A stretch of DNA of 62,023 bases from Thermoplasmatota archaeon (GTDB lineage Archaea > Thermoplasmatota > E2 > DHVEG-1): contig JAWOGM010000039.1 in assembly GCA_046496795.1 (NCBI GenBank), positions 1 to 62,023 on the forward strand, read 5' to 3'. Under the pieces are notes generated by a model. The model did no database searches. It was not told the DNA's origin and saw only the letters and a program-made list of their open reading frames with translations. Made by a program: the position numbers and the translations under genes. The stretch's first letter is position 1. Every line of letters begins with the position of its first letter. Below, piece after piece: positions 5,122-48,055 of this stretch.

Positions 5122-6108
5122 CTACCGCCTCTTGCTATAAAACCGTGCCATCTGCTTTAAAGGCGATTCAGCATCAACATCTCTGATCGATCTCCCAGTA
5201 AAATATAAAAAAACATCATCAAGAGTCGGTTTACGAACATTTATTGATTTAATAGTTATGTTTAAAGAATGAGCTAATTCAAATAGTTTAGGAATTTTCT
5301 CTTCCCCTTTCTCAACTCCAAGAGTTAAATATGAATTATGAAGTTTACTATTATTAATCCATGACTCTTTTTCTAACTCCTGCTTAAAAAGATGAGCATC
5401 TGAACATAAAAGGGTAATAACATCATTACCAACTGAATTTTTCAGATTTTGAATTGTATCAATAATAAGAATTTTACCTTTATCAATAATACCAACACGA
5501 TCACATAAATACTCTGCTTCATCCATATAATGAGTCGTTAAAAAAATAGTTGTCTCTTCCTGTTTATTCATATTTTTTATATACTCCCAGATAGCTCTTC
5601 GTGTCTGAGAATCAAGACCCAAGGTGGGTTCATCTAAAAATAGAACCAAAGGATAATGCATAAGACCACGGGCAATCTCAAGACGACGTTTCATCCCCCC
5701 TGAATAAAATTTCACAAGAATATCCTTTTTCTCAACAAGATCAACAAGATCTAAGACATCATTAATACGTTTTATTCTTTTCTCTTTAGACATGCCATAC
5801 ATACGCGCATGAAAATCAAGATTTTCCCTGCCGGTTAATTCAGTATCAAGAGCAGGCTCCTGAAACACCACACCAATACTTTTTCTTACCTCATCACGTT
5901 GTTTAATAACATCAAAACCAGAAATCTTTGCCGATCCCTCTGTTGGAAACAATAATGTAGTCAACATTTTAATAGTGGTAGTTTTTCCTGCACCATTTGG
6001 CCCTAGAAAACCAAAAATTTCCCCCTTTTTTAGAGAAAAAGAAATATCATCAACTGCAGTAAAGCCATTAAATTTTTTAATAAGATGATTTGTTTTGATA
6101 ATATCCAC
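5122..6108 (-). CDS. ABC transporter ATP-binding protein (DrrA/CcmA-like exporter ATPase)
   Basis: Walker A GPNGAGKTT, Q-loop, signature YSGGMKRRL, Walker B LVLFLDEPTLGLD, H-loop TTHYM. Confidence 0.9.
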   Translation of the reverse strand: MDIIKTNHLIKKFNGFTAVDDISFSLKKGEIFGFLGPNGAGKTTTIKMLTTLLFPTEGSAKISGFDVIKQRDEVRKSIGVVFQEPALDTELTGRENLDFHARMYGMSKEKRIKRINDVLDLVDLVEKKDILVKFYSGGMKRRLEIARGLMHYPLVLFLDEPTLGLDSQTRRAIWEYIKNMNKQEETTIFLTTHYMDEAEYLCDRVGIIDKGKILIIDTIQNLKNSVGNDVITLLCSDAHLFKQELEKESWINNSKLHNSYLTLGVEKGEEKIPKLFELAHSLNITIKSINVRKPTLDDVFLYFTGRSIRDVDAESPLKQMARFYSKRR

Positions 6109-6151
6109 AGATAACGCTTCCTTTTTAATCTTAGCAATATATTTTTAATAC

Positions 6152-6838
6152 TTATCCTTTGCTAACCAAACAAAAATAATTATCTGGATATTTTTTTGAA
6201 CATATCTTGCATTCATCAATTAAATTTATTTTCAAACCAGCTTCCTGAATATCATTTAATAATTCATCTTTTCTATATAAATGATAAAACCGAGGAATAT
6301 TTATTGAATCACGATTCCAAGAGATCAAAATATCTCCAAATTCTTTTTTTGAATCATCTTTATTTACAAAATAATCACGAAATCGATCTTGCTCTTGAGT
6401 CCACACGCTCAGTAATCCTTTTCCGGTAGGTTTTAAAATTCGTTTAACTTCTTTTAGACAAGAAACTCGGTTCTCTCTTCCTTTAATATTATGTAACGCG
6501 GCAATAAACAAAACAGTTTCCACAGAATTATCCTTTAAAGGAATTCTAACAAGATTGCCCTGAATTAATAATATATTTTTTACATGAGAATTAACCTTTT
6601 TTTTAGTTATATGAAGCAGATTTATAGAAATATCAAGGCCAATACATATCTTAAATTTTTCCGTACATAACAAAAGATGCCGACCGTTTCCACATCCAAT
6701 ATCAGCAACAATAGCATTAGAAGACAAAGAATTAATAAAATCAATAACATAACCCCATGGTTTTTTTCTCGTAGCATCAAAACTTTCTGCTATGCAATTC
6801 CAGGTATCTTCAGATTCTTTGAAATGAGAAATATTCAT
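6152..6838 (-). CDS. SAM-dependent methyltransferase, Trm9/ALKBH8-methyltransferase-like
   Basis: WNCIAESFDATRKKPWGYVIDFI...IVADIGCGNGRHL and FIAALHNIKGRENRVSCLKEVKRILKPTGKGLLSVWTQEQ match my recollection of the Trm9 pattern (FSxTRxKPW...D(V/I)GCGNGKY...ERR...LKPGG...WAxEQ). Confidence 0.6.
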   Translation of the reverse strand: MNISHFKESEDTWNCIAESFDATRKKPWGYVIDFINSLSSNAIVADIGCGNGRHLLLCTEKFKICIGLDISINLLHITKKKVNSHVKNILLIQGNLVRIPLKDNSVETVLFIAALHNIKGRENRVSCLKEVKRILKPTGKGLLSVWTQEQDRFRDYFVNKDDSKKEFGDILISWNRDSINIPRFYHLYRKDELLNDIQEAGLKINLIDECKICSKKYPDNYFCLVSKG

Positions 6839-6942
6839 ATCACCATATCCACATAATTTAAATCTTTTATATTTTTGCTATTAACCAGGTAGGAAAATTA
6901 ATACATAAGAGATTGATACAGATAAAAAAATGGAGAATTATT

Positions 6943-37807: not shown

Positions 37808-38998
37808 TTATGCCTGTATGAGTGGTTCTTCTAACCCTGCTTCTTTAGCTAGAAGTTTTGCTTTATCTACTTTTTCCCAGGAGAAATCAGGATCGTCTCT
37901 TCCGAAATGACCATAGGAAGCTGTCTTTTTATATATTGGTCGCCTCAAATCAAGAGTTTTAATAATATCACTAGGTTTTATTGGGAAAAATTCACGGATT
38001 AAATGTTCAATTCGCTCAAGTGGAATTTTATTTGTCGCAAAACAGTCAATATTGATGGATACCGGCTCGGCAACTCCTATTGCATAAGCAAATTGAATTT
38101 CACATTTATCAGCAATTCCAGATGCTACAATGTTTTTTGCTATATAACGACTTGCATAGGCACCACTTCTATCAACTTTTGTTGGATCTTTACCGGAAAA
38201 TGCACCACCACCATGTCTTCCAACACCACCATAGGTATCAACAATTATCTTTCTTCCTGTAAGTCCTGCATCTGCATACGGGCCTCCACGGACAAAAGCC
38301 CCCGTTGGATTGACATGAACAATGGTATTGTTATCAATCCATTCTTTACAAATTGGTTTAATTACTTTTTCAGCGATATCCTTTTCAATACGCTTATGAG
38401 ATATGCCTGGATCATGTTGGGTTGACACTACTATAGTATCTGCCCGAAGAGGGACACCATTTTCATCATATTCTATAGAAACCTGTGATTTACCATCAGG
38501 ACGTAGATAGGGAATAATATTTTCTTTTCGAACTTGTGATAATCTCTTTGATAATTTATGTGCAAGTGAAATGGGTAACGGCATCATCTCTTTTGTTTCA
38601 TTGCAAGCATACCCATACATCATCCCTTGATCTCCTGCTCCTTGCTCTGAATGTAAACCTTTCCCAGCAGAAACACCTTGAGAGATATCTGGGCTTTGTT
38701 CTGTTATTTGTACCCATACTGAACAAGTCTCCCATTCAATACCATATTCTGATTTTGTATAGCCTATTTCTTTTATGGTATTACGTACGACACCAGGAAT
38801 GTTAATATATGTCTCAGTTGTCATTTCTCCAAATACCATGACACCACCGTTTTTTGTTGCTGTTTCAATAGCTACTCTCGAATTTATATCTTCTTTAATT
38901 GCTTCATCAAGAATCGCATCAGAAATAAGATCACACATTTTATCAGGATGACCTTCAGTTACTGACTCTGAACTTATGAGTATTTTTCTTTTCGCCAT
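37808..38998 (-). CDS. metK: S-adenosylmethionine synthetase, bacterial/eukaryal MetK type
   Basis: [53 protein letters not shown], and ASYGHFGR at the C-terminus. Confidence 0.95.
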
Positions 38999-39130
38999 AA
39001 TTCTGCCCCTATTCCTTTATAAAATATTATTGGTAAAAAGTCAAGATAAAAAACATATTTATTAATTTTATTAAAAAAAGTACATGTTTTAGTCCTACGA
39101 TCAATATAATAAATAGAAAAAGAGGATTTT

Positions 39131-39532
39131 TTAGTCAAATTTTCTGGTAGTCCACATATCTTCATCAATATTGTTGTATATATCATCTTCAGATACATTG
39201 ACTGGTTGTTTTTTATCGATGAGATATCGTGGTGTTGCATTGCCTTGTTTTGAATAGCGCAGGATTGTTTCTTTTTTTATTTTCCAGTAATGAGTTCGCC
39301 ATTCTCTACCATCATAAAGGGTGCTTTCTTCCCGCTCAGTAGTAAGCATTCCTTCTTCTTCAAGGATATAAAAAAGTTGTCTATCTTCAGGATCTAAAAC
39401 ATTATCAATTACTCGGTCATCAAAACCAAAGATGTCCATTACAAATCCTGCATCTCGTTGAGCTTCTTCGTAATCAATTCCCACTCTGTTTGATATGGCA
39501 TTTGATAAATCTTCTAATGTTATAATTGTCAT
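39131..39532 (-). CDS. conserved-looking hypothetical acidic protein
   Basis: Start set to MTIITLED (ATG 39532; AGGGA lies 8 nt upstream). No motif assigned. Confidence 0.45.
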   Translation of the reverse strand: MTIITLEDLSNAISNRVGIDYEEAQRDAGFVMDIFGFDDRVIDNVLDPEDRQLFYILEEEGMLTTEREESTLYDGREWRTHYWKIKKETILRYSKQGNATPRYLIDKKQPVNVSEDDIYNNIDEDMWTTRKFD

Positions 39533-39765
39533 AAAATATCCCTTACATTTCAAATCTTATTTTCTTAGAGCATTCAATTTTTTTCTATTATATGTATCAC
39601 AACTACTATATATAACTTTCTATCTTTTTTGTATATTTATTGATTTTTTTGATTAAGAGTAGTGTACCATCTATTGTTAATCCTTTTATTTATATTTTTT
39701 ATTTTATAGTTATCTATTTAAAATAATAATAAATTTTATATACTCCTTATGAATTCTTTTTATTA

Positions 39766-39824
39766 AGAATGGGGGAGTCACATTTTTTAAATCTCTCCTC
39801 ACCACCTTCGGTCTTCCCCATTCT
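39766..39824. other. 12-bp GC-enriched inverted repeat with a 35-nt loop
   Basis: AGAATGGGGGAG (39766-39777) pairs with CTTCCCCATTCT (39813-39824), with one G-U pair. Lies 14 nt downstream of the stop of the HD-domain gene. Confidence 0.25.
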
Positions 39825-39837
39825 CTCCTTATTATAT

Positions 39838-41103
39838 TCAGAATAAATGTTCTCTAACTTTTTTAGATATTACATCACGATATTTTTCGTCAGAAATAAT
39901 CATAACTGCCCAGTCAGGGGTTACCCTAGTGCGAACAGCATGAGCAACTGTTGTATATTCATCAAGCGTCTTTTTTTCATTATTATCAACAACAAAAATA
40001 TCTGTTTTATGCAAACGAGGTTCAGTCATAAAAAGCTCTGTGCGAGGAACATCGATAATTAAATGACCATGGGGAATGTCAAATATCTGTTCAAACTCTT
40101 CTTCTTTTTTTCGTCTATATGAAACATCTTCTAACCGTTTAACCTCATCTTGTGCAGATTCATCTAAATCATTATATGAAGCCGCATACGCTTGTTTAAA
40201 CAGATTTCGATATTTTAAGCGAGTAATAATTTCTTGTTGATAACGCCCCATACTCTGAAGTGAAGTAACAAGCTCTGCATCAGTCATCCTGAAAAATTCA
40301 AAAGGGGCAATATCTTTGATCATTTCAATTGCTTTAGACAACATTAATTCAGCAATTCGTACCGTTTTATGAAAATATACAGAGGAATACATCAATCCTC
40401 GAGCCATCAGAATATTTTCAACGACACTGACTCCTTTTCTCTGAATAGCTAACGAGTCATTATAGATGATTAAAGTCTGGAGTAATCGTTGAATATCAAT
40501 CATGCCATAAGATACTCCGGTATAATAGGCATCACGAAGTAAATAATCAAGCTGATCAACATCAATTGTACTGTTTAATATTTGACTGACATATGAATTC
40601 CCATAGGCTTTTCCTTTGATAATGGTAATAATTTCATTTTTATCAATACTTGTTGTTGCAATCAATTCATGAACACTAGGTGAGGAAATATAATTTTTTT
40701 CATGTTCATCGAGTATAGAATAGTTGCCTAGGATAAGTTCTTTGGTCAAAGCAATATGGTCAACTCCAAACTGTTCTAAAAGCAGAGATTCAAGAGTATG
40801 AGAAAATGGACCATGACCTATATCATGTAAAAGAGCAGCACATGTTATCACATCTTTTTTTTCATTATCAATTGATAATGTGTTCACGATTTGAGAAGCA
40901 AGAAAACACGATCCTAGTGAATGTTCCAATCTGGTATGATGAGCTCCAGGAAAAACTAAATGTGCAAAACCTAACTGTTTTATATTATACAATCGCTGAA
41001 TCTCAGGGGTCTGCAGAAAACGAGCAATCAATTCAGGAAGTTTAATATTTCCATGAATAGGATCACGAACGAATTTATCTTTTCGGTTCATAGCTGACAC
41101 CAC
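39838..41103 (-). CDS. HD-domain phosphohydrolase, SAMHD1/dNTP triphosphohydrolase-like
   Basis: VRDPIHGNIKL, QRLYNIKQLG, GAHHTRLEHSLG, ALLHDIGHGPFSH, DQLDYLLRD. Confidence 0.85.
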   Translation of the reverse strand: MVSAMNRKDKFVRDPIHGNIKLPELIARFLQTPEIQRLYNIKQLGFAHLVFPGAHHTRLEHSLGSCFLASQIVNTLSIDNEKKDVITCAALLHDIGHGPFSHTLESLLLEQFGVDHIALTKELILGNYSILDEHEKNYISSPSVHELIATTSIDKNEIITIIKGKAYGNSYVSQILNSTIDVDQLDYLLRDAYYTGVSYGMIDIQRLLQTLIIYNDSLAIQRKGVSVVENILMARGLMYSSVYFHKTVRIAELMLSKAIEMIKDIAPFEFFRMTDAELVTSLQSMGRYQQEIITRLKYRNLFKQAYAASYNDLDESAQDEVKRLEDVSYRRKKEEEFEQIFDIPHGHLIIDVPRTELFMTEPRLHKTDIFVVDNNEKKTLDEYTTVAHAVRTRVTPDWAVMIISDEKYRDVISKKVREHLF

Positions 41104-41246: not shown

Positions 41247-41513
41247 ATGAGTAAAGTAATATTGTTTTCACTTGAAAATTGTGTGAAATGTATGCAGATA
41301 AAAGAGATGATTAAAGAAAGAGATGATATAGAAATAATAACCTATCCTCATGATATCAACAAGTGGAGCGATGAAGAGCTTTCACAAGCCAAACAATATG
41401 ATGTATTTGATGATTTAGCTCAGACCGCGCCAATATTATGCGTTGATGGACAAAAAAAGATTGGATATCTTCGTATTAGAAAATGGTTACAGGATACAGG
41501 CAGATTATCGTAA
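41247..41513 (+). CDS. glutaredoxin/NrdH-like small thioredoxin-fold protein
   Basis: 88 aa with N-terminal beta-strand plus CxxC (ILFSLENCVKCMQIK). GAGGTGA Shine-Dalgarno-like motif upstream. Confidence 0.7.
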   Translation: MSKVILFSLENCVKCMQIKEMIKERDDIEIITYPHDINKWSDEELSQAKQYDVFDDLAQTAPILCVDGQKKIGYLRIRKWLQDTGRLS

Positions 41514-41918
41514 TTCTTGTTCAATTGTTTTTAATTTTTGTTTCATATGCATATACCAATTATCGATACATGTTTCTATTTCTTTTTTTATTTGTTTAGG
41601 ATCTGTGCATGTATATGTGTGGAAATATCCACCTGAAGGTATTGTTTTTATTGTTTTTTTGCATAATCCGCAAGAGGTCAATTTTTGTAATGATCGATAG
41701 ATAGTACTTCGTTCTTTGTGTAAAAGTTGGGCGAGATTATCAGCTCTGATTTCTCCAGTTTCTTTAAGAGTGTTGTAGACAGTAAAGTCTAAGTTGTTTA
41801 GATTAAAAACGCAGGATAATACTTCTTGACAGCATATATTTTGGATTTTCTTTTTTATTTTTATCACTGGATCTATAATGACGTTGTATCTTATAACGGT
41901 TGTGCTATTTTTTTGCAC
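41505..41918 (-). CDS. Cys-rich TrmB-like winged-helix transcriptional regulator
   Basis: wHTH segment FTVYNTLKETGEIRADNLAQLLHKERSTIYRSLQKLTSCGLC, with 8 Cys in total including CC and CGLC. Confidence 0.65.
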   Translation of the reverse strand: MQKNSTTVIRYNVIIDPVIKIKKKIQNICCQEVLSCVFNLNNLDFTVYNTLKETGEIRADNLAQLLHKERSTIYRSLQKLTSCGLCKKTIKTIPSGGYFHTYTCTDPKQIKKEIETCIDNWYMHMKQKLKTIEQELR

Positions 41919-42031
41919 AAACGTTAAATATTATTATAAACATTACCTCGATACATATGCAAGAACTAGAAAAATTAAGGAAAACAAAGCTAGAACAACT
42001 CAGACAAAAATATATGAAAGGAGAACAAAAT

Positions 42032-42367
42032 ATGGAAAACCAAATGCCAAATAAATCTGTACAAATAACAGATGCAGATATCAACGAACAAATTAAAAAA
42101 TATAAAACAATCGTAATTGATTGCTGGGCACCATGGTGTGGACCCTGTCAAATGGTTGGACCTGTCATCGAAGATCTAGCAAAAGAAATGCAGGGATCAA
42201 TTGTCTTTGGAAAACTCAATGTCGATGAAAACCCAAAAACATCCATGGATTATAAAGTTATGAGCATACCAACACTATTAGTATTTAAAGATGGTGCTCT
42301 TGTCGATAGACTTGTTGGTGCTATGACAAAAGATATGCTCATGCAAAAACTAAAAGCATATCAATAA
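42032..42367 (+). CDS. trxA: thioredoxin
   Basis: Active site CWAPWCGPCQM, cis-Pro SIPTLLVF. Start set to ATG 42032 (GGAG at 42020-42023). Alternative ATG at 41957; the tool start at 41900 is TTG. Confidence 0.9.
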   Translation: MENQMPNKSVQITDADINEQIKKYKTIVIDCWAPWCGPCQMVGPVIEDLAKEMQGSIVFGKLNVDENPKTSMDYKVMSIPTLLVFKDGALVDRLVGAMTKDMLMQKLKAYQ

Positions 42368-42384
42368 AAATAGAACCTGTGCTC

Positions 42385-42957
42385 ATGAATAAAAAAATAC
42401 AAACAAAACAGAGTGTCCTACTATTAATCATAACTTTTATACTTATTTTTACTCTTTTTTCAGGATGTGTAAGTGAAACAGATGAAAAAAATCTTCCCAT
42501 AAACGATTTTACTTTTACAGATATAGATGGTCAAACAAAAAAACTCAGTGATCACCTCGGAAAAATTGTATTATTAGATCTCTGGGCTGCGTGGTGTGGG
42601 CCTTGTCAAATGCAAATGTTTGAACTTTTAGAAGCATATAATTATTATCCAAAAGAGGAATTTGAGATTTTATCTATAAATGTAGATGCCGGAGAAAACC
42701 TAGTACAAATACAACAGTTCATTGAAGAATATAAAAGATACGGATATGAGTTAAAATGGGTATTTGGAAATGATGATGACGGTTCCATCTGGGAGACATA
42801 CAAAGTAGGAGGAGGAGGTATACCTGCAATAGTTATTTTTGACAAAAAAGGAGATATCGTTTTTGCTCATGAAGGAATCGCAGTATTTACAGAGATACCA
42901 GAGGGATTGCCTGCAAGTACACCAAAACTTTCACTAATAATTAATCAATTGTTATGA
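42385..42957 (+). CDS. extracytoplasmic TlpA/ResA-like thiol-disulfide oxidoreductase (lipobox)
   Basis: Signal peptide plus lipobox LFSGC, redoxin active site LWAAWCGPCQMQM, GIPAIVIFD cis-Pro region. ATG 42385 preferred over GTG 42379. Confidence 0.8.
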   Translation: MNKKIQTKQSVLLLIITFILIFTLFSGCVSETDEKNLPINDFTFTDIDGQTKKLSDHLGKIVLLDLWAAWCGPCQMQMFELLEAYNYYPKEEFEILSINVDAGENLVQIQQFIEEYKRYGYELKWVFGNDDDGSIWETYKVGGGGIPAIVIFDKKGDIVFAHEGIAVFTEIPEGLPASTPKLSLIINQLL

Positions 42958-43066
42958 TGAAAAATGGAAATATTTATTTAAGATATATTTGTTATAGCTG
43001 AATAATTTAATAGTATTAGAAATAGAAATAAAAAAATTTTTTCGTAAAAAGATATGGGGACAGAAT

Positions 43067-43573
43067 ATGAAAACAAAAAAAATAGGTCTAATAATACTTA
43101 TTCTAAGCATATTTGCAGCATTAATGGGAAATGTAGGTGCAGATCAATCAATAGTCAAAGAAGTAACAATTGTTCCTGAGAACCCCAGTGCAGGATCTGA
43201 AATCACTGTTACAGTTGAGCTAGAAGGAGAAGATATCCAAGCTGTTCATGTGATCATACAGGAATGTATTGGAACTCTTGGTATTTGCAGATTCCAGGAG
43301 AATATTACCATGACCCAGACAGAGGCAGGAACTTATGAAGTTAATTATAAACTTCAAGACGACGAAGCAACATACATAACCTATTTTTTCCACATAAACA
43401 AAGCAGGGAATTGGATACAAACAAACGGTGTTGATATTGATCTGCAGTCAATTCCATCTAATGGAGGAGACGACAATGGATCAGATGACTCAACACCAGG
43501 TTTTGGGATTACGTTAACCATTATCTCAATAATAGTGATTATTTTCTTGTTTGAAAAAAAGAGATCTCAATGA
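43067..43573 (+). CDS. small secreted Ig-like protein with PGF-CTERM-type sorting signal
   Basis: N-terminal signal peptide and a Cys pair (QECIGTLGIC). The C-terminus runs Ser/Asp/Gly-rich linker, PGF, hydrophobic helix, basic tail (DDSTPGFGITLTIISIIVIIFLFEKKRSQ). Confidence 0.7.
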   Translation: MKTKKIGLIILILSIFAALMGNVGADQSIVKEVTIVPENPSAGSEITVTVELEGEDIQAVHVIIQECIGTLGICRFQENITMTQTEAGTYEVNYKLQDDEATYITYFFHINKAGNWIQTNGVDIDLQSIPSNGGDDNGSDDSTPGFGITLTIISIIVIIFLFEKKRSQ

Positions 43574-44391
43574 AGCTACAACAAAAAAGATTACTCTCTC
43601 AAATTATTTTTATCATTTCAGCTAATCTAGGTTATGAAGGATTCCCTGGCTTAAAAACAGGGTTATGCTTTCCTTTTTTTTATTGTCATGCGTGCCCCTC
43701 AGCTAGCGCTGCCTGCCCCTTGAGATCGCTTGAACAAAGCGTATTTAAGGAAAGTTTTGCCTGGAGACTATTTCTATATCCACTTCTCATCATTGGATTT
43801 GTAGGTATACTTACAGGACGTGCAGTTTGTGCATGGGCTTGCCCTATTGGATTGCTACAACGAGCAACATCACCGCTGGCACGTAAAGTAAAGAAAAAAC
43901 CGTTAGCAAATAAAATAGGAAACCATAAAATTGAAGGTTATCTTCGCTATACCAAATATATTCTGCTCATATCATTTGTATTTATCAGCTCATATTTGAT
44001 TGGATTTATGTTTACTGATATCTGTCCTATTGGATTTTTAACAGGTACCATTCCTACTCTTCTTCTATATCCAGGAAGATATATTGGAAATTTTTACTTT
44101 ACGATGGCGTTTATTATTTTACTGTTGTTTTTTGTCCTTATTTTGCTTATTGAGCGGGGATGGTGCCGATATTTTTGTCCTGTAGGTGCCCTTCTTGCAC
44201 CGTTTAATAAAATCAGTTTCCTTCATATAGATGTAAATCGTGAGAGATGTAAACATTGCAATCTTTGTTCATATAAATGTCCTATGGGAATTAATGTTCC
44301 TGAGATGAAAAGAGATCTTGAATGCATCCTCTGTGGTAAATGTGTAACAGCATGCCCTGAAAACATTATCAGTTTTAAACGAGGAGGATAG
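43570..44391 (+). CDS. NapH/NosH/MauN/CcoG-like membrane polyferredoxin
   Basis: Two CX3CP motifs (CAWACPIG, CRYFCPVG), two ferredoxin motifs (CKHCNLCSYKCP, CILCGKCVTACP), an N-terminal CHACPSASAACP and 4-5 TM segments. ATGA overlap with the upstream gene. Confidence 0.8.
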   Translation: MKLQQKRLLSQIIFIISANLGYEGFPGLKTGLCFPFFYCHACPSASAACPLRSLEQSVFKESFAWRLFLYPLLIIGFVGILTGRAVCAWACPIGLLQRATSPLARKVKKKPLANKIGNHKIEGYLRYTKYILLISFVFISSYLIGFMFTDICPIGFLTGTIPTLLLYPGRYIGNFYFTMAFIILLLFFVLILLIERGWCRYFCPVGALLAPFNKISFLHIDVNRERCKHCNLCSYKCPMGINVPEMKRDLECILCGKCVTACPENIISFKRGG

Positions 44392-45042
44392 ATGATGAAG
44401 AAAAAATTCTTTGCAACTCAAATCATCTGCCTTTTGCTTATTTCCGGCACTCTAGGAGGAATGATAGCATTCACACCAGTATATGCAGAAGTGAGAGATG
44501 GAATTGTTCGCGTTCTTTGCCTAAGTTGCCTGAAACTTGAACCAAAAACAGTATCAGAGTTTACCTTTGAAACAGTTGAAAATATAGCTCATCCCAAGTT
44601 TATATTAGAAAACCTTTCTAAAGGAGGCCCAGTGTTTATTTTTTATAGTGGAGATGCCTGTTCAGGATGCGATATTATGTATCCAGTTATCAAAGAACTA
44701 CTCTCTGTTGAATTTGATAAACAAGAGATGTTTGATGAGACAATATCATATGAAGGGGCAAACGTATCATATATATACATAAATATACATCATACTACAG
44801 ATGAATTAAAAGAATCACAATATATATACGACAAAGATTTTATAGCAGGCATACCAATGTTTACCATTATTACCCTTGGTTATGATAAAGGAGTAGTACG
44901 ACCAAAATATACTACCATTTATGGAACACTGGCATCATTTGATCATACCACTGATGAAGGAAGATTGTTATTTCTCCAGAATTTATTACAAGAAAGCATC
45001 TACATGTATCAGGATAACATAGCAGGATATAATCATCATTAA
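44392..45042 (+). CDS. secreted/anchored thioredoxin-fold-like protein with CxxC motifs
   Basis: N-terminal signal/TM, CLSC, and VFIFYSGDACSGCDIMYP (Trx-like beta-strand plus CxxC). Start abuts the upstream stop. Confidence 0.55.
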   Translation: MMKKKFFATQIICLLLISGTLGGMIAFTPVYAEVRDGIVRVLCLSCLKLEPKTVSEFTFETVENIAHPKFILENLSKGGPVFIFYSGDACSGCDIMYPVIKELLSVEFDKQEMFDETISYEGANVSYIYINIHHTTDELKESQYIYDKDFIAGIPMFTIITLGYDKGVVRPKYTTIYGTLASFDHTTDEGRLLFLQNLLQESIYMYQDNIAGYNHH

Positions 45043-45067: not shown

Positions 45068-45232
45068 TTAGATTTCATCGTTTTTAATTTTCTGTCGCAG
45101 AATCTCAAATTGTTCTTTTGTTAAGGTACAGATATTATCTTTTTCACCGATAATAACTTGATTTTCTTGTACATCAACAACTGGGCATTTTGGAGGTATA
45201 CAGGTACCATCTATACATAAAACAACTTTCAT
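45068..45232 (-). CDS. 54-aa Cys-containing small protein
   Basis: MKVVLCIDGTCIPPKCPVVDV... Start at ATG 45232 with GAGGA 8 nt upstream. Lies 81 nt downstream of the PaaK-like gene on the same strand. Confidence 0.45.
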   Translation of the reverse strand: MKVVLCIDGTCIPPKCPVVDVQENQVIIGEKDNICTLTKEQFEILRQKIKNDEI

Positions 45233-45313: not shown

Positions 45314-46693
45314 TTAGATATATTTCTCTGTTTTCAATGCATCATCAGATATTTTTGATACTATTCTTTTTTTCTGTTTACCAAGACTTTTGACTTGCTT
45401 AACCCTGACAGTTACTCCAGGTCCCACTATCTGTTCAAACCCTGTTTGAATAATTGATATAATTTGCTCAACAGACGCATTATCATGTTGTTTTTTATCA
45501 ATCACAATATCAATATCAAGAGAAGACATATCTTTTTGGATGATTCGTGTATCAATAATTTTTGTTGTTTTAAGTTGATATAATAATTTACTAAATATCT
45601 CTGCAAATGCTGTTGGCATAAGTCGCGTGCCATCAGCTAATAGAATCGAGAGAGTTTCACGACCATAAATTTTTTTTATTACATCTCCTGAGATATCGCA
45701 TGAGCATTTTTTTGAAGAAGGCTCAACAATATCATTAATGGCATTATATCGAATAATTGGAGTGCCCCGTCCAAAAAGTTTTGTTACCACTAATTTTCCA
45801 GGTTTTTTCTCTACATTTTCACCTTTATCATCAATAAATTCAAGGTGCAAAAGATCAGACATCACATGATATCCACCATGTTTACATTCAAATGCAATAG
45901 GGCCTGTTTCTGTTGCACCATAGACTTCATAGACCTGGGCGTTAAAACAATCCTTTATATAGTTGCGGAGTTGTGGATCAAGAACAGAGCCTGTACATGC
46001 AATAACTGAAGGACGAATATTTGTTCCATGTCCTTGTTCTTTAAGTAAAGCCATATGGGCAAGCATCCCTACATATCCACCAATAAAATCTGGTTCAAAG
46101 GTGCTAATCTGCTTAATATTATCAAGAGGACTGGCATTAGTATCAAGCCATTGAATATTTTTAAAAATAAAAGAGGATTTTGTTTTTGGCTGTAACGCTT
46201 TCTTAATATAGCCAGTTTCAGCGGTATGAGAAGCAAAATCGCCAATAATTGTTAATTTTGAGCTCCTCCAATTAAGACCATACTCCCGAATTGTCCGAAG
46301 ATACCCAAATAAACCCATCACAACATCAAACATATCAACAAAAATAGATAATGATTTCCCTGTTGTCCCCGATGTTGAAACTTCAACAAAATTATTTGGT
46401 GATGTATTCTTTGAGATTATACCCAAGGGATAATACTTTTTTATATCCTCTTTGGTAACAAAAGGCAAGTGTTTAATATCCTTAAGGCCAGTTATATCAT
46501 CAGGATGAATTCCATGAGAACGATAAATATCATGATAGAGAGGGACTGTGTAGGCAAATTCAACGATATGTTTAAACTTCTTATCTCTGAATCGCTGTAA
46601 TTGGTTAGTATCAAAGCGTTTTAAACGGTTTATGTCAAACAGGTAAGATTTTAATACTTTTGAGAGAAACACTGGATTATAGAATGGATTCAT
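45314..46693 (-). CDS. adenylate-forming enzyme, phenylacetate-CoA ligase (PaaK)/coenzyme F390 synthetase-like
   Basis: STSGTTGKSLSIF (P-loop), YGATETGPIAFEC, IIRYNAINDIV, C-terminal GKQKK. Confidence 0.8.
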   Translation of the reverse strand: MNPFYNPVFLSKVLKSYLFDINRLKRFDTNQLQRFRDKKFKHIVEFAYTVPLYHDIYRSHGIHPDDITGLKDIKHLPFVTKEDIKKYYPLGIISKNTSPNNFVEVSTSGTTGKSLSIFVDMFDVVMGLFGYLRTIREYGLNWRSSKLTIIGDFASHTAETGYIKKALQPKTKSSFIFKNIQWLDTNASPLDNIKQISTFEPDFIGGYVGMLAHMALLKEQGHGTNIRPSVIACTGSVLDPQLRNYIKDCFNAQVYEVYGATETGPIAFECKHGGYHVMSDLLHLEFIDDKGENVEKKPGKLVVTKLFGRGTPIIRYNAINDIVEPSSKKCSCDISGDVIKKIYGRETLSILLADGTRLMPTAFAEIFSKLLYQLKTTKIIDTRIIQKDMSSLDIDIVIDKKQHDNASVEQIISIIQTGFEQIVGPGVTVRVKQVKSLGKQKKRIVSKISDDALKTEKYI

Positions 46694-46735: not shown

Positions 46736-48055
46736 ATGCCTCTTATACTCGATCAAGCAATGAACATATTATTAATTGAAAACGTATGGATGGGGAAAAG
46801 AAAACTCAAATTCTTTGAAAAACTATTACTTACTTTTTTTTCAATTTTACCGACTCTTCATGCACGTCAGATTGCAGCAATGACACCAAAAAATCATACC
46901 ATACATGTCCTTAATGAACGGTACGAATCGATAGATTTTAAAAAATCTTATGATCTTGTCCACATAAACTTTACAACATCTACGGCACCAAGAGCATATG
47001 AAATCGCAGATAAATTTAAAGCAAAAAAAATAACAGTTACCTTAAGCGGAGCTCATGCATCATCCTTGCCCTATGAAGCATTACAACATGGTGATGCAGT
47101 TCTTCTTGGAAGAGGGGAATTAAATTGGCCTACCCTTCTTAAAGATTTTCAGCAGAATCGGTTAAAAAAAATCTATCCCTCACCACCCTATGATACAAAT
47201 TGTAACCTGCCTGCAACAGCAATCAAGCTTCCGGGTTTTATCATAACCGCAGCAATAGAAGCAACACGGGGATGTCCTTACCGTTGTGAATTTTGCCCTG
47301 AATCACAAAACAATACCAAACCATTATATTATAAAAGACCGATTGATGATGTCATCAAAGAGATTAAATCAATACCTCAGAAAACATTACAATTTTATGA
47401 TAGCTCTCTTACTATTGACCCTGATTATACAAAACAACTTTTTAGACAAATGAAAGGACTGGGAAAAAAGTTTTTTTGCAATGGTAATGTAGACATTTTG
47501 GCTTGTGATGATGAACTTCTCAAATGTGCAAAAGAAGCAGGATGTATTGCTTGGTTGATAGGCTTTGAATCAATATCTCAAGATACTATTGATAGCATAG
47601 GGAAAATAACCAATACCACTCAGTACTATGAAAAGGCAATAAAAAAAATACATTCAAATAAAATGGCAGTAATTGGTTGTTTTATTTTTGGATTTGATTC
47701 TGAAACACCAGCTGTGTTTGAGCAAACACTATATGCTATACAAAAAATGAATGTTGATATTTGTGATTTTTGTGTTCTTACACCGTTGCCTGGAACCGCC
47801 CTCTATAAGCGGCTTGAATCAGAATCACGACTTCTCACAAAAAATTGGGAGAAATACAACCTTAAAACCGTTGTGTTTCAACCAAAACAGATGACACCAG
47901 ATCAACTCCAGAGAGGGATACAAAAAATGTATAGACACTTTTATAGTCCATTCTCTATAATTACAAGGATTCTAGGTTCAATACATCTCGGATTCTTTGC
48001 TTTTTTTGTTGTTACTGTTAGAACCATTATTGCATTAATGAATTCCAAACGATAA
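46736..48055 (+). CDS. B12-binding-domain radical SAM protein (class B)
   Basis: N-terminal Rossmann-like B12 domain, then EATRGCPYRCEFCPE (CX3CX2C). Alternative start at ATG 46760 (MNILLIEN). Confidence 0.8.
   Translation: MPLILDQAMNILLIENVWMGKRKLKFFEKLLLTFFSILPTLHARQIAAMTPKNHTIHVLNERYESIDFKKSYDLVHINFTTSTAPRAYEIADKFKAKKITVTLSGAHASSLPYEALQHGDAVLLGRGELNWPTLLKDFQQNRLKKIYPSPPYDTNCNLPATAIKLPGFIITAAIEATRGCPYRCEFCPESQNNTKPLYYKRPIDDVIKEIKSIPQKTLQFYDSSLTIDPDYTKQLFRQMKGLGKKFFCNGNVDILACDDELLKCAKEAGCIAWLIGFESISQDTIDSIGKITNTTQYYEKAIKKIHSNKMAVIGCFIFGFDSETPAVFEQTLYAIQKMNVDICDFCVLTPLPGTALYKRLESESRLLTKNWEKYNLKTVVFQPKQMTPDQLQRGIQKMYRHFYSPFSIITRILGSIHLGFFAFFVVTVRTIIALMNSKR

Follow-up and report, generated by a model that had tools for sequence, protein, structure and literature searches.

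A group of seven adjacent genes, named A to G here, was studied at positions 41247-45042 of a 62,023-nt stretch of contig JAWOGM010000039.1 (assembly GCA_046496795.1) from a Thermoplasmatota archaeon; the whole of this stretch is called the window below. Our analyses suggest that three of the gene products, the surface immunoglobulin (Ig)-like protein E, the NapH-like Fe-S membrane protein F and the thioredoxin-fold protein G, constitute one membrane machine passing reductant to thiol-disulfide proteins of the cell surface, that is, an Fe-S counterpart of DsbD/CcdA, and we regard the chance that this is so as about even. The evidence that carries the proposal is the recurrent pairing and natural fusion of F with G, together with the conserved cysteines of the three proteins. 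To our knowledge, the supply of reducing or oxidising power to extracytoplasmic cysteines in archaea is poorly known, and we are aware of no well-understood reductive conduits other than proteins of the DsbD/CcdA type.

The window is AT-rich, with a GC content of ~33% across its length, and the closest relatives of its proteins belong to uncultured Thermoplasmatota metagenome-assembled genomes, those of the SM1-50 lineage among them. An initial annotation, made from the letters alone, had listed seven open reading frames (ORFs) with their cysteine motifs, and all seven were recovered where it had placed them (Table 1).

Pairing and fusion of F with G

An F alignment to which fusion proteins had been added was scanned against 185,579 species-representative genomes and returned 307 relatives, and the counts of gene pairing given below refer to the best 80 of these 307, with one locus per species-level genome. 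Among the ORFs of the 80 loci, E, F and G were identified by local hidden Markov models (HMMs) and the remaining genes by phmmer, relatives of E being recovered through gene position together with the local HMM. The hosts of these loci were nearly all Thermoplasmatota; the exceptions were one member of the Bathyarchaeia, a few entries labelled 'uncultured archaeon', one DHVE2 and one member of the Methanomassiliicoccales.

The neighbourhood is conserved across related genomes. G adjoined F (gap of at most 150 nt) in 66 of the 80 loci and was fused to it in 7, which gives a linked total of 73; it was not seen in the other 7, two of which end at a contig edge. Gene order varies. E-F-G is typical of the clade of the window (F identity of at least ~54%) and G-F of a second clade (F ~41-46%); in three loci the genes are convergent, and in a third clade F and G form a single gene of 930-1000 amino acids (aa). 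Junctions between the separate genes are tight, the step from E to F being -4 nt in 25 of 46 loci and that from F to G being 4 nt or less, or overlapping, in nearly all of 54 loci. In the window itself the E stop overlaps the F start (ATGA at 43570-43573), and the F stop and G start abut (TAG/ATG at 44389-44394) with GGAGGA just upstream, in agreement with the translational coupling of the last three genes that had been described earlier.

Fused genes were found in loci L068, L074, L076, L078, L079, L082 and L083, and the profile search with G retrieved P0292, in which F and G likewise make up one chain. The order in P0311, P0315 and the genomic fusions is F, a transmembrane (TM) helix and G, and full-length fusions extend beyond G through a second CxxC domain and Ig-like domains to an E-like domain with a TM anchor after it. 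An E-like domain also stands at the C-terminus of P0279 (hhalign with the E profile, probability 73%) and was detected in L078 with the local HMM (E 2e-05). Since a single TM helix joins the cytoplasmic ferredoxin domain to G in the fusions, G is predicted to lie outside the membrane.

A gene arrangement that recurs in dozens of species-level genomes cannot reasonably be put down to chance. It might still be supposed that the genes are neighbours merely through the shared ancestry of close genomes and have no joint function, and much of the wider synteny (MetK, DUF6015 and HD genes upstream, ligase and radical SAM genes downstream) is indeed of clade level; yet flanking genes change between lineages, the F-G pairing outlasts changes of order and orientation as well as divergence and fusion, and the fusions effectively refute an explanation to which we give hardly any weight. 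Judged from the loci compared, pairing that persists across reordering, divergence of F (to ~38% identity) and fusion goes beyond inherited synteny, and because it survives all three, F and G probably work together physically.

The extent of the conserved unit could also be narrowed. Contigs with G homologues of 55-78% identity all encode the thioredoxin, E, F, G and a small convergent ORF of 54 aa, A and B are variable, and the downstream ligase and radical SAM genes are replaced in another lineage. Therefore, from the seven-gene module put forward in the initial annotation, a core of E-F-G plus thioredoxin was retained, but A, B and D, which vary across loci, were not. The linkage of F is to G rather than to a known reductase: E and G are its flanking genes in the window and in most of the 80 loci, and no nap, nos or cco genes stood beside F in the annotated neighbourhoods inspected.

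Cysteine architecture of F, G and E

F contains two CX3CP motifs (C87/C91 and C199/C203) and two CX2CX2CX3CP motifs, the latter in a C-terminal 2x[4Fe-4S] ferredoxin domain, and 17 of its cysteines are invariant in an alignment of 21 homologues. These motifs, with two Fer4_5 matches, confirm the polytopic protein with two CX3CP and two ferredoxin motifs that had been recognised before. Hydropathy and the positive-inside rule predict four TM helices and an N-terminus inside. TM1 is weak and would be followed by an outer loop (26-62) containing C33, C39, C42 and C49, with the motif YC-x2-CP-x5-CP. The loop after TM2 (91-130), which is strongly basic (10 K+R) and has the first CX3CP at its start, is predicted inside; TM3 would end at the outer face with C152 (CPIG), and the second CX3CP and the double ferredoxin domain, after TM4, would both lie inside. 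The predicted sidedness thus places the ferredoxin and CX3CP motifs in the cytoplasm, and the extra cysteines of F outside together with the thioredoxin-fold proteins.

C39 and C49 are retained in all aligned archaeal relatives of F and C42 usually is, and C152 is retained except in L073 and in most of a subgroup of loci with F only. In the loci of this subgroup (L075, L077, L080 and L088; F at ~6000-6880) most of the outward cysteines are kept, C152 being present in L075 alone. Alignment with the MG1655 sequence showed that C39, C42, C49 and C152 are missing from E. coli NapH, and because of this difference the outward cysteine set separates the F family, in the sequences aligned, from E. coli NapH, the sole canonical member compared. 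The two proteins do align across the CX3CP and ferredoxin motifs.

The best family match of F is TIGR02163 (NapH/MauN) at 96.6 bits, under the cut-off of 213.05; the NapH equivalog NF007013 gives 83.4 bits against a cut-off of 234, and the CcoG model TIGR02745 gives 30.2 bits against 316.7. No DsbD_TM match was obtained for F in Pfam, and the PDB matches covered ferredoxin domains only, with no solved structure for the membrane part among them. F therefore resembles NapH/MauN, a family that includes the quinol-dehydrogenase subunit of periplasmic nitrate reductase, in its four TM helices, two inner CX3CP motifs and C-terminal double ferredoxin motif, but differs in its sub-threshold score, its neighbours (neither napG nor napA), its extra outward cysteines and its thioredoxin-fold partner.

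G of the window has no Pfam match, and distant members of its family reach the Pfam Thioredoxin cut-off. An exhaustive profile search yielded 97 clusters (50% identity) in 1.84e9 representative proteins, by which measure G is a small, specific family. The first CxxC (C-L-[SG]-C) directly follows the TM helix and the second lies ~45 residues on; in relatives with as little as 25-30% identity, each motif is still at least 90% conserved. In an AlphaFold2 (AF2) model built from a 24-sequence alignment, with a predicted local distance difference test (pLDDT) score of 78, a strand at 81-86 leads to C90xxC93 at the start of a helix (91-104), and the invariant P155 precedes a strand at 157-165; as modelled, this is the geometry of a thioredoxin active site. 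The top 20 Foldseek matches of the model were thioredoxins or thioredoxin-fusion constructs (probability 0.9-0.99, with 0.96-0.99 for the best of them, all thioredoxins; E only ~0.01).

We read the N-terminal hydrophobic stretch of G as a TM anchor that is probably retained. Its sequence is conserved (Q10 and L14 invariant; S18, G23 and M24 nearly so), which would be uncommon in a signal peptide that is removed, and it matches the helix that links F to G in the fusions; a cleaved signal peptide was rejected on the same grounds. Of the signal-peptide protein with CLSC and CSGC motifs reported in the initial annotation, the motifs were thus verified, but the protein is probably membrane-anchored rather than secreted. 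Extracytoplasmic Fe-S binding by the four cysteines of G was also considered and judged unlikely; G has no twin-arginine signal.

E diverges fast (~30% identity among relatives), and a word-based homologue search with it retrieved only E itself. In the 44 homologues recovered, the cysteine pair that had been noted in E proved invariant, and the loop between the two cysteines has 3-9 residues. The constant features are a strand ending in [EQ]-C, the loop, the second cysteine, after which Y-P is frequent, and further on an N-x-[ST]-M sequon and a PGF-CTERM-like signal. The C-terminus 'TPGFGITLTIISIIVIIFLFEKKRSQ' shows the tripartite form of this signal (PGF, TM helix, KKR), and among the homologues P144 and G145 never vary and F146 hardly does. 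PGF-CTERM HMMs scored E just under their cut-offs (16.8 vs 18.8 and 17.7 vs 24.5), PF18204 matched 9 of the 44 homologues (best E 5.8e-05), and the only hit of the E profile against PDB sequences was the PGF-CTERM tail of the cell surface glycoprotein 7ptp (E 0.05).

In a single-sequence AF2 model of E (pLDDT 73), four of the five models being poor and Foldseek giving no credible match, both cysteines flank a beta-hairpin. Cross-strand disulfides of the hairpin type are often redox-active; a structural role for the modelled pair is also possible. Homology to the alpha domain of DsbD was tried and not established: hhalign aligned the cysteine pairs of E and E. coli DsbD-alpha with a probability of only 14%, and Pfam DsbD_N matched 4 of the 44 homologues at sub-threshold E-values (0.17-0.24) over profile positions 77-115 of 119 only, so the resemblance is treated as an analogy at motif level. 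The sequon of E (43300-43315, residues 79-82) stands a few residues past the cysteine hairpin and its M82 is nearly invariant, which suggests N-glycosylation beside the cysteine pair or a ligand-binding methionine.

A proposed reductive relay and its alternatives

The proposed relay would run as follows. First, electrons would enter the C-terminal two-[4Fe-4S] ferredoxin domain of F from ferredoxin or a similar low-potential donor, and/or the co-encoded thioredoxin would act on the two CX3CP pairs of F at the inner membrane face. Second, they would cross the membrane to the outward cysteine set of F (C39/C42/C49 and C152), pass to the membrane-proximal CxxC of G and then to its thioredoxin-type CxxC. 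Third, G would deliver them to the cross-strand cysteine pair of E and to clients such as D, or, in other lineages, DUF1223-like or Sco-like redoxins. The purpose would probably be to keep surface or pseudo-periplasmic cysteines of an anaerobe reduced, or to repair them. A reductive direction is favoured on the basis of redox potentials, since ferredoxin-type clusters (~-400 mV) can reduce thioredoxin-type disulfides (~-200 to -270 mV) and the reverse is uphill, and on the basis of companions of the reductive side, namely thioredoxin, thioredoxin reductase and TlpA-like proteins. Going further, E-F-G may stand for a third class of transmembrane disulfide reductases, one built on Fe-S clusters, beside the proteins of the DsbD/CcdA type. 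It would wire the low-potential ferredoxin pool and/or thioredoxin of anaerobic archaea directly to surface thiol-disulfide proteins, and in it a NapH-type module would have been repurposed by gaining outward cysteines and a dedicated anchored double-CxxC thioredoxin; this wider claim is held more tentatively, at somewhat less than an even chance.

Thiol-system genes stand beside F and G in other lineages as well. A thioredoxin-reductase-type flavoprotein lies directly beside G in L073 (7606-8556, minus strand; Pyr_redox_2 2e-59, CATC), and a cytoplasmic thioredoxin of 107 aa lies near the G-F pair in L067 (4834-5157, minus strand). Secreted DUF1223/Omp28-like CxxC proteins with the motif [ST]xCxxCP adjoin F-G in L059 (798-2447), L065 (856-2406) and L072 (3436-4356); those of L059 and L065 have an fn3 domain, and that of L065 has a PGF-CTERM-like tail. 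The second CxxC domain of the fusions (~440-560 of P0311 and P0315), read by eye, may correspond to these proteins. The Bathyarchaeia locus L085 (3861-6792) comprises HdrC-like and HdrB-like genes (CCG motifs, by eye), an anchored TlpA/Sco-like redoxin, a 47-aa ORF and F. This putative ORF consists of a TM helix followed by 'FLCPSC' and resembles the N-terminal TM helix and CLSC of G, so that the arrangement looks like a split version of G at this single locus.

A CcdA-like gene (DsbD_2 1.2e-09, DsbD_TM 5.9e-05) lies immediately after the fused gene and convergent with it in L074 (8768-9529), L076 (9129-9893) and L082 (8975-9736), in each case on the minus strand. In the 62-kb window, neither phmmer with E. 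coli DsbD-beta nor Pfam on all polytopic ORFs found CcdA or DsbD; the statement of the initial annotation that none is encoded here accordingly holds for the window only. That F replaces CcdA is not a general rule, because of the CcdA-like gene at these three loci, where the Fe-S module occurs together with a thiol conduit of the classical kind.

The CcdA-like gene could also be taken as the reductive branch, with F-G as a separate oxidative one. As an analogue of DsbB/VKOR, F would then reoxidise a DsbA-like G, which introduces disulfides into secreted proteins including E, and would hand the electrons inward to quinone or to an acceptor in the cytoplasm. Cysteine pairs that need to be formed are indeed present in E and in many surface proteins. 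It is established, however, that a thiol pair can pass electrons to ferredoxin-type clusters only against the thermodynamic gradient; moreover, the G model is without the helical insertion typical of DsbA, the companion genes are of the reductive side (cytoplasmic thioredoxin, thioredoxin reductase, TlpA/ResA-like redoxins), and the hosts apparently belong mostly to sediment, groundwater and other subsurface lineages. An oxidative system is therefore regarded as unlikely, even though NapH is considered a quinol/quinone-interacting subunit (PMC8238504; PMC5928378).

The Sco-like features of L085 bear on another alternative, namely metal handling. CcoG works alongside TlpA/Sco-type proteins in Cu delivery, and F could by analogy reduce Cu(II) or another metal(loid), with the reduced ion then bound or chaperoned at the surface by G, E and D. 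F does belong to the superfamily of the cupric reductase CcoG, the L085 redoxin matches SCO1/SenC at 3.9e-09, the G proteins of the window's clade have His-rich C-terminal tails, and E has a cysteine pair with a nearly invariant methionine nearby. Against this, the CcoG match is weak (30 bits vs 317), the wider G family does not conserve the His-rich tails, the annotated neighbourhoods inspected showed neither a cuproenzyme nor a Cu-ATPase nor any cco/nos gene, and invariant paired CxxC motifs in a thioredoxin fold are typical of thiol-disulfide exchange. Metal handling, which the initial annotation had offered as its alternative in the form of a surface copper pathway, is not supported as it stands, and we think it rather improbable, slightly more so than an oxidative system.

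The HdrBC-like genes that adjoin F in L085 would also suit an electron sink or a form of respiration, in which electrons from ferredoxin are placed onto external disulfides, polysulfide or other oxidants, and E and the redoxins form the catalytic surface. Such a sink would benefit the hosts, which are reportedly fermentative archaea of sediments. Furthermore, extracytosolic reductases are usually what NapH-like conduits serve (PMC8238504). No dedicated catalytic reductase subunit is conserved beside F in the loci compared, though, and its partners are small thioredoxin-fold proteins typical of protein thiol maintenance; a sink function seems to us a little less probable again, about one possibility in ten.

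Several points weigh against a reductive E-F-G relay as well. Contact between F, G and E and electron flow among them, like the donor and the clients, are deduced from motifs, conservation, pairing and fusions; the conduit to surface thiols suggested in the initial annotation is upheld in its conserved neighbourhood, its linkage to G and its predicted topology, and the flow itself is what we infer. The direction of flow is likewise argued from potentials. The CcdA-like gene beside three fused versions means that F-G need not be the only conduit, or reductive at all. In addition, E resembles DsbD-alpha only locally and without significance in these alignments, and its place could be that of a client or of a structural partner instead of a relay component; the extra cysteines of F might hold another metal cluster instead of acting as redox-active thiols; and the F relatives of L075, L077, L080 and L088 have no adjacent G.

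Compared with known systems, the E-F-G set is most readily set beside DsbD and the CcdA-ResA/TlpA/CcmG pathways, with which it shares an adjacent cytoplasmic thioredoxin gene and a membrane conduit having cysteines on both faces. The CcdA-ResA/TlpA pathways also have their parallel in the TlpA/ResA-type candidate client D. With DsbD it further shares an outward thioredoxin-fold CxxC module (G; CVAC in DsbD-gamma), which is an analogy and not a specific homology to DsbD-gamma, a probable beta-sandwich with a hairpin cysteine pair, similar at the level of the motif ('EC-NGQTG-ICYP' in E relatives vs 'GC-ADAG-FCYP' in E. coli DsbD-alpha), and natural fusions that yield a single multidomain chain. 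In contrast, the core of F is a NapH-type four-TM module with CX3CP and two [4Fe-4S] motifs and not a DsbD_TM/CcdA fold, the order in the fusions is membrane-thioredoxin-Ig rather than the Ig-membrane-thioredoxin of DsbD, and G has a second, membrane-proximal CxxC. CcoG/RdxA/FixG have in common with F a Fer4_5 membrane module and two [4Fe-4S] clusters within the same superfamily, but F matches the CcoG model weakly, has no cco context and is partnered by a CxxC thioredoxin-fold protein. The chemistry proposed here, in which a [4Fe-4S] cluster beside cysteines would reduce a disulfide with single ferredoxin-type electrons, is that of ferredoxin:thioredoxin reductase and HdrB/HdrD; these enzymes are, however, soluble or on the cytoplasmic side, perform no transmembrane transfer and have no sequence kinship to the membrane part of F. 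NosR and the PceC/RdhC-type conduits contain the same membrane module with a fused or adjacent extracytosolic redox carrier (PMC8238504; PMC5928378), but there the carrier is a flavinylated FMN (flavin mononucleotide)-binding domain, whereas here it is of the thioredoxin fold, the system is archaeal, and no ApbE was seen.

Meheust et al. (2021; PMC8238504) portray NapH-like proteins as transmembrane conduits of modular build that adjoin FMN-binding domains or are fused to them, and they note 'functional parallels' to carriers of the thioredoxin-like type; a NapH-thioredoxin pairing was not reported in that survey. According to Buttet et al. (2018; PMC5928378), the function of CX3CP is not known, and the motifs are regarded as likely to form disulfides. 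This literature on modular NapH conduits and on CX3CP fits the relay and does not pre-empt it. As the initial annotation had supposed for archaea, we found no description of the F-G pairing in the searchable literature, our searches having covered few subscription journals. If the relay is real, it would be a different solution to the problem solved by DsbD/CcdA, in which a NapH-type Fe-S protein is paired or fused with a surface thioredoxin, and it would link the ferredoxin pool of an anaerobe to envelope thiol chemistry. It would also provide a first assigned chemistry, a disulfide relay, for the CX3CP motifs of NapH, NosR, PceC/RdhC and CcoG, and would extend the idea of a modular NapH-like conduit from flavin to thiol carriers. 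The role of CX3CP in NapH, NosR, RdhC and CcoG has been an open question for ~20 years. Moreover, two unannotated families, G and E, are defined, which are widespread in sediment Thermoplasmatota and are labelled 'hypothetical' by current pipelines.

Companion and flanking genes

Table 1. Positions, strands and assignments of genes A to G, with the basis of each assignment
Gene	Position	Strand	Description	Basis
A	41247-41513	+	Small Grx/NrdH-like protein, 88 aa, CVKC; accessory	Weak Pfam matches
B	41505-41918	-	TrmB/Lrs14-like winged helix-turn-helix regulator, 7 Cys; variable accessory	PF01978, 8.6e-10
C	41957-42367 (ORF open from 41900)	+	Cytoplasmic thioredoxin, WCGPC; candidate cytoplasmic partner or donor	TIGR01068
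D	42379-42957	+	Lipobox-anchored TlpA/ResA-like redoxin, FSGC and WCGPC; candidate extracytoplasmic client	Pfam AhpC-TSA/Redoxin
E	43067-43573	+	Surface Ig-like/beta-sandwich protein, 168 aa, signal peptide, C67-x6-C74, PGF-CTERM-like anchor	Sequence, HMMs, homologue alignment
F	43570-44391	+	NapH-like polytopic Fe-S/Cys membrane protein, 273 aa; proposed transmembrane conduit	Pfam Fer4_5 x2 and Fer4 families
G	44392-45042	+	Thioredoxin-fold protein, 216 aa, N-terminal TM helix, C43-L-S-C46, C90-S-G-C93, P155 (cis-Pro-type)	Alignments, AF2, Foldseek

The descriptions previously given to genes A to D were largely borne out. C scores 116.7 bits with TIGR01068, above the cut-off of 96.8, and has no hydrophobic segment, as expected of the cytoplasmic thioredoxin it had been called; translation probably begins at the ATG at 41957, for a product of 136 aa, a length that its homologues share. 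It stands upstream in the large majority of loci of the E-F-G type, and CxPC is kept in 40 of 42 homologues. D exceeds the Pfam cut-offs for AhpC-TSA (70.3 bits) and Redoxin (53 bits) and has an N-terminal TM helix followed by FSGC, a lipobox-like motif being present in 32 of 47 homologues. Its redoxin fold, FSGC and WCGPC were therefore corroborated, but its assignment to the ResA or TlpA subfamily was not, the scores lying below the cut-offs (90.9 vs 170 for ResA-like and 65.9 vs 230 for TlpA). D is present in most E-F-G loci and missing from L001 and L002. A is present in many loci and keeps CxKC in 27 of 31 homologues, which supports the motif noted earlier, and its similarity to thioredoxin and glutaredoxin families is weak (E 0.02-0.05). 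B had been described as a divergent Cys-rich regulator of the TrmB type, in line with its PF01978 match and seven cysteines; the Sta1/Lrs14 HMMs scored under their cut-offs. It occurs in ~20 loci (about a quarter), with 4-8 cysteines in homologues, including CC and CxxC-like pairs, and is a possible thiol-based redox sensor and candidate regulator of the cluster.

In the spacer between D and E (42958-43066, 109 nt), a run of T residues occurs together with AT-rich segments that resemble TATA elements. E-F-G may thus have a promoter of their own, separate from that of the thioredoxin-TlpA genes, which fits the lineages without D.

Upstream of the group (37808-41103) lie genes for S-adenosylmethionine synthetase (MetK), DUF6015 and an HD-domain protein, syntenic in many Thermoplasmatota loci; this block seems to reflect synteny at clade level and not a link in function. 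In L075, L077, L080 and L088, sequence inspection identified a conserved protein of 162-171 aa, JAMM/MPN membrane proteins and an E2-like (ubiquitin-conjugating-like) gene as the neighbours of F. Downstream of G, the convergent 54-aa ORF (45068-45232, minus strand) is Cys-rich, with the motif C-x4-C-x4-C...C in 28 of 30 homologues. It is followed by a CapK/PaaK/F390-synthetase-like adenylate-forming ligase (45314-46693, minus strand) and then by a B12-binding radical SAM enzyme (46736-48055, plus strand), and the three are conserved downstream of G in ~30 loci. In L007 and L008 a response regulator and a PAS kinase stand in place of the ligase and the radical SAM enzyme, and the small ORF is retained. 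The trio could be a peptide-modification set, resembling those for ribosomally synthesised and post-translationally modified peptides, or a lipid-modification set; alternatively, the small protein could be part of the redox module.

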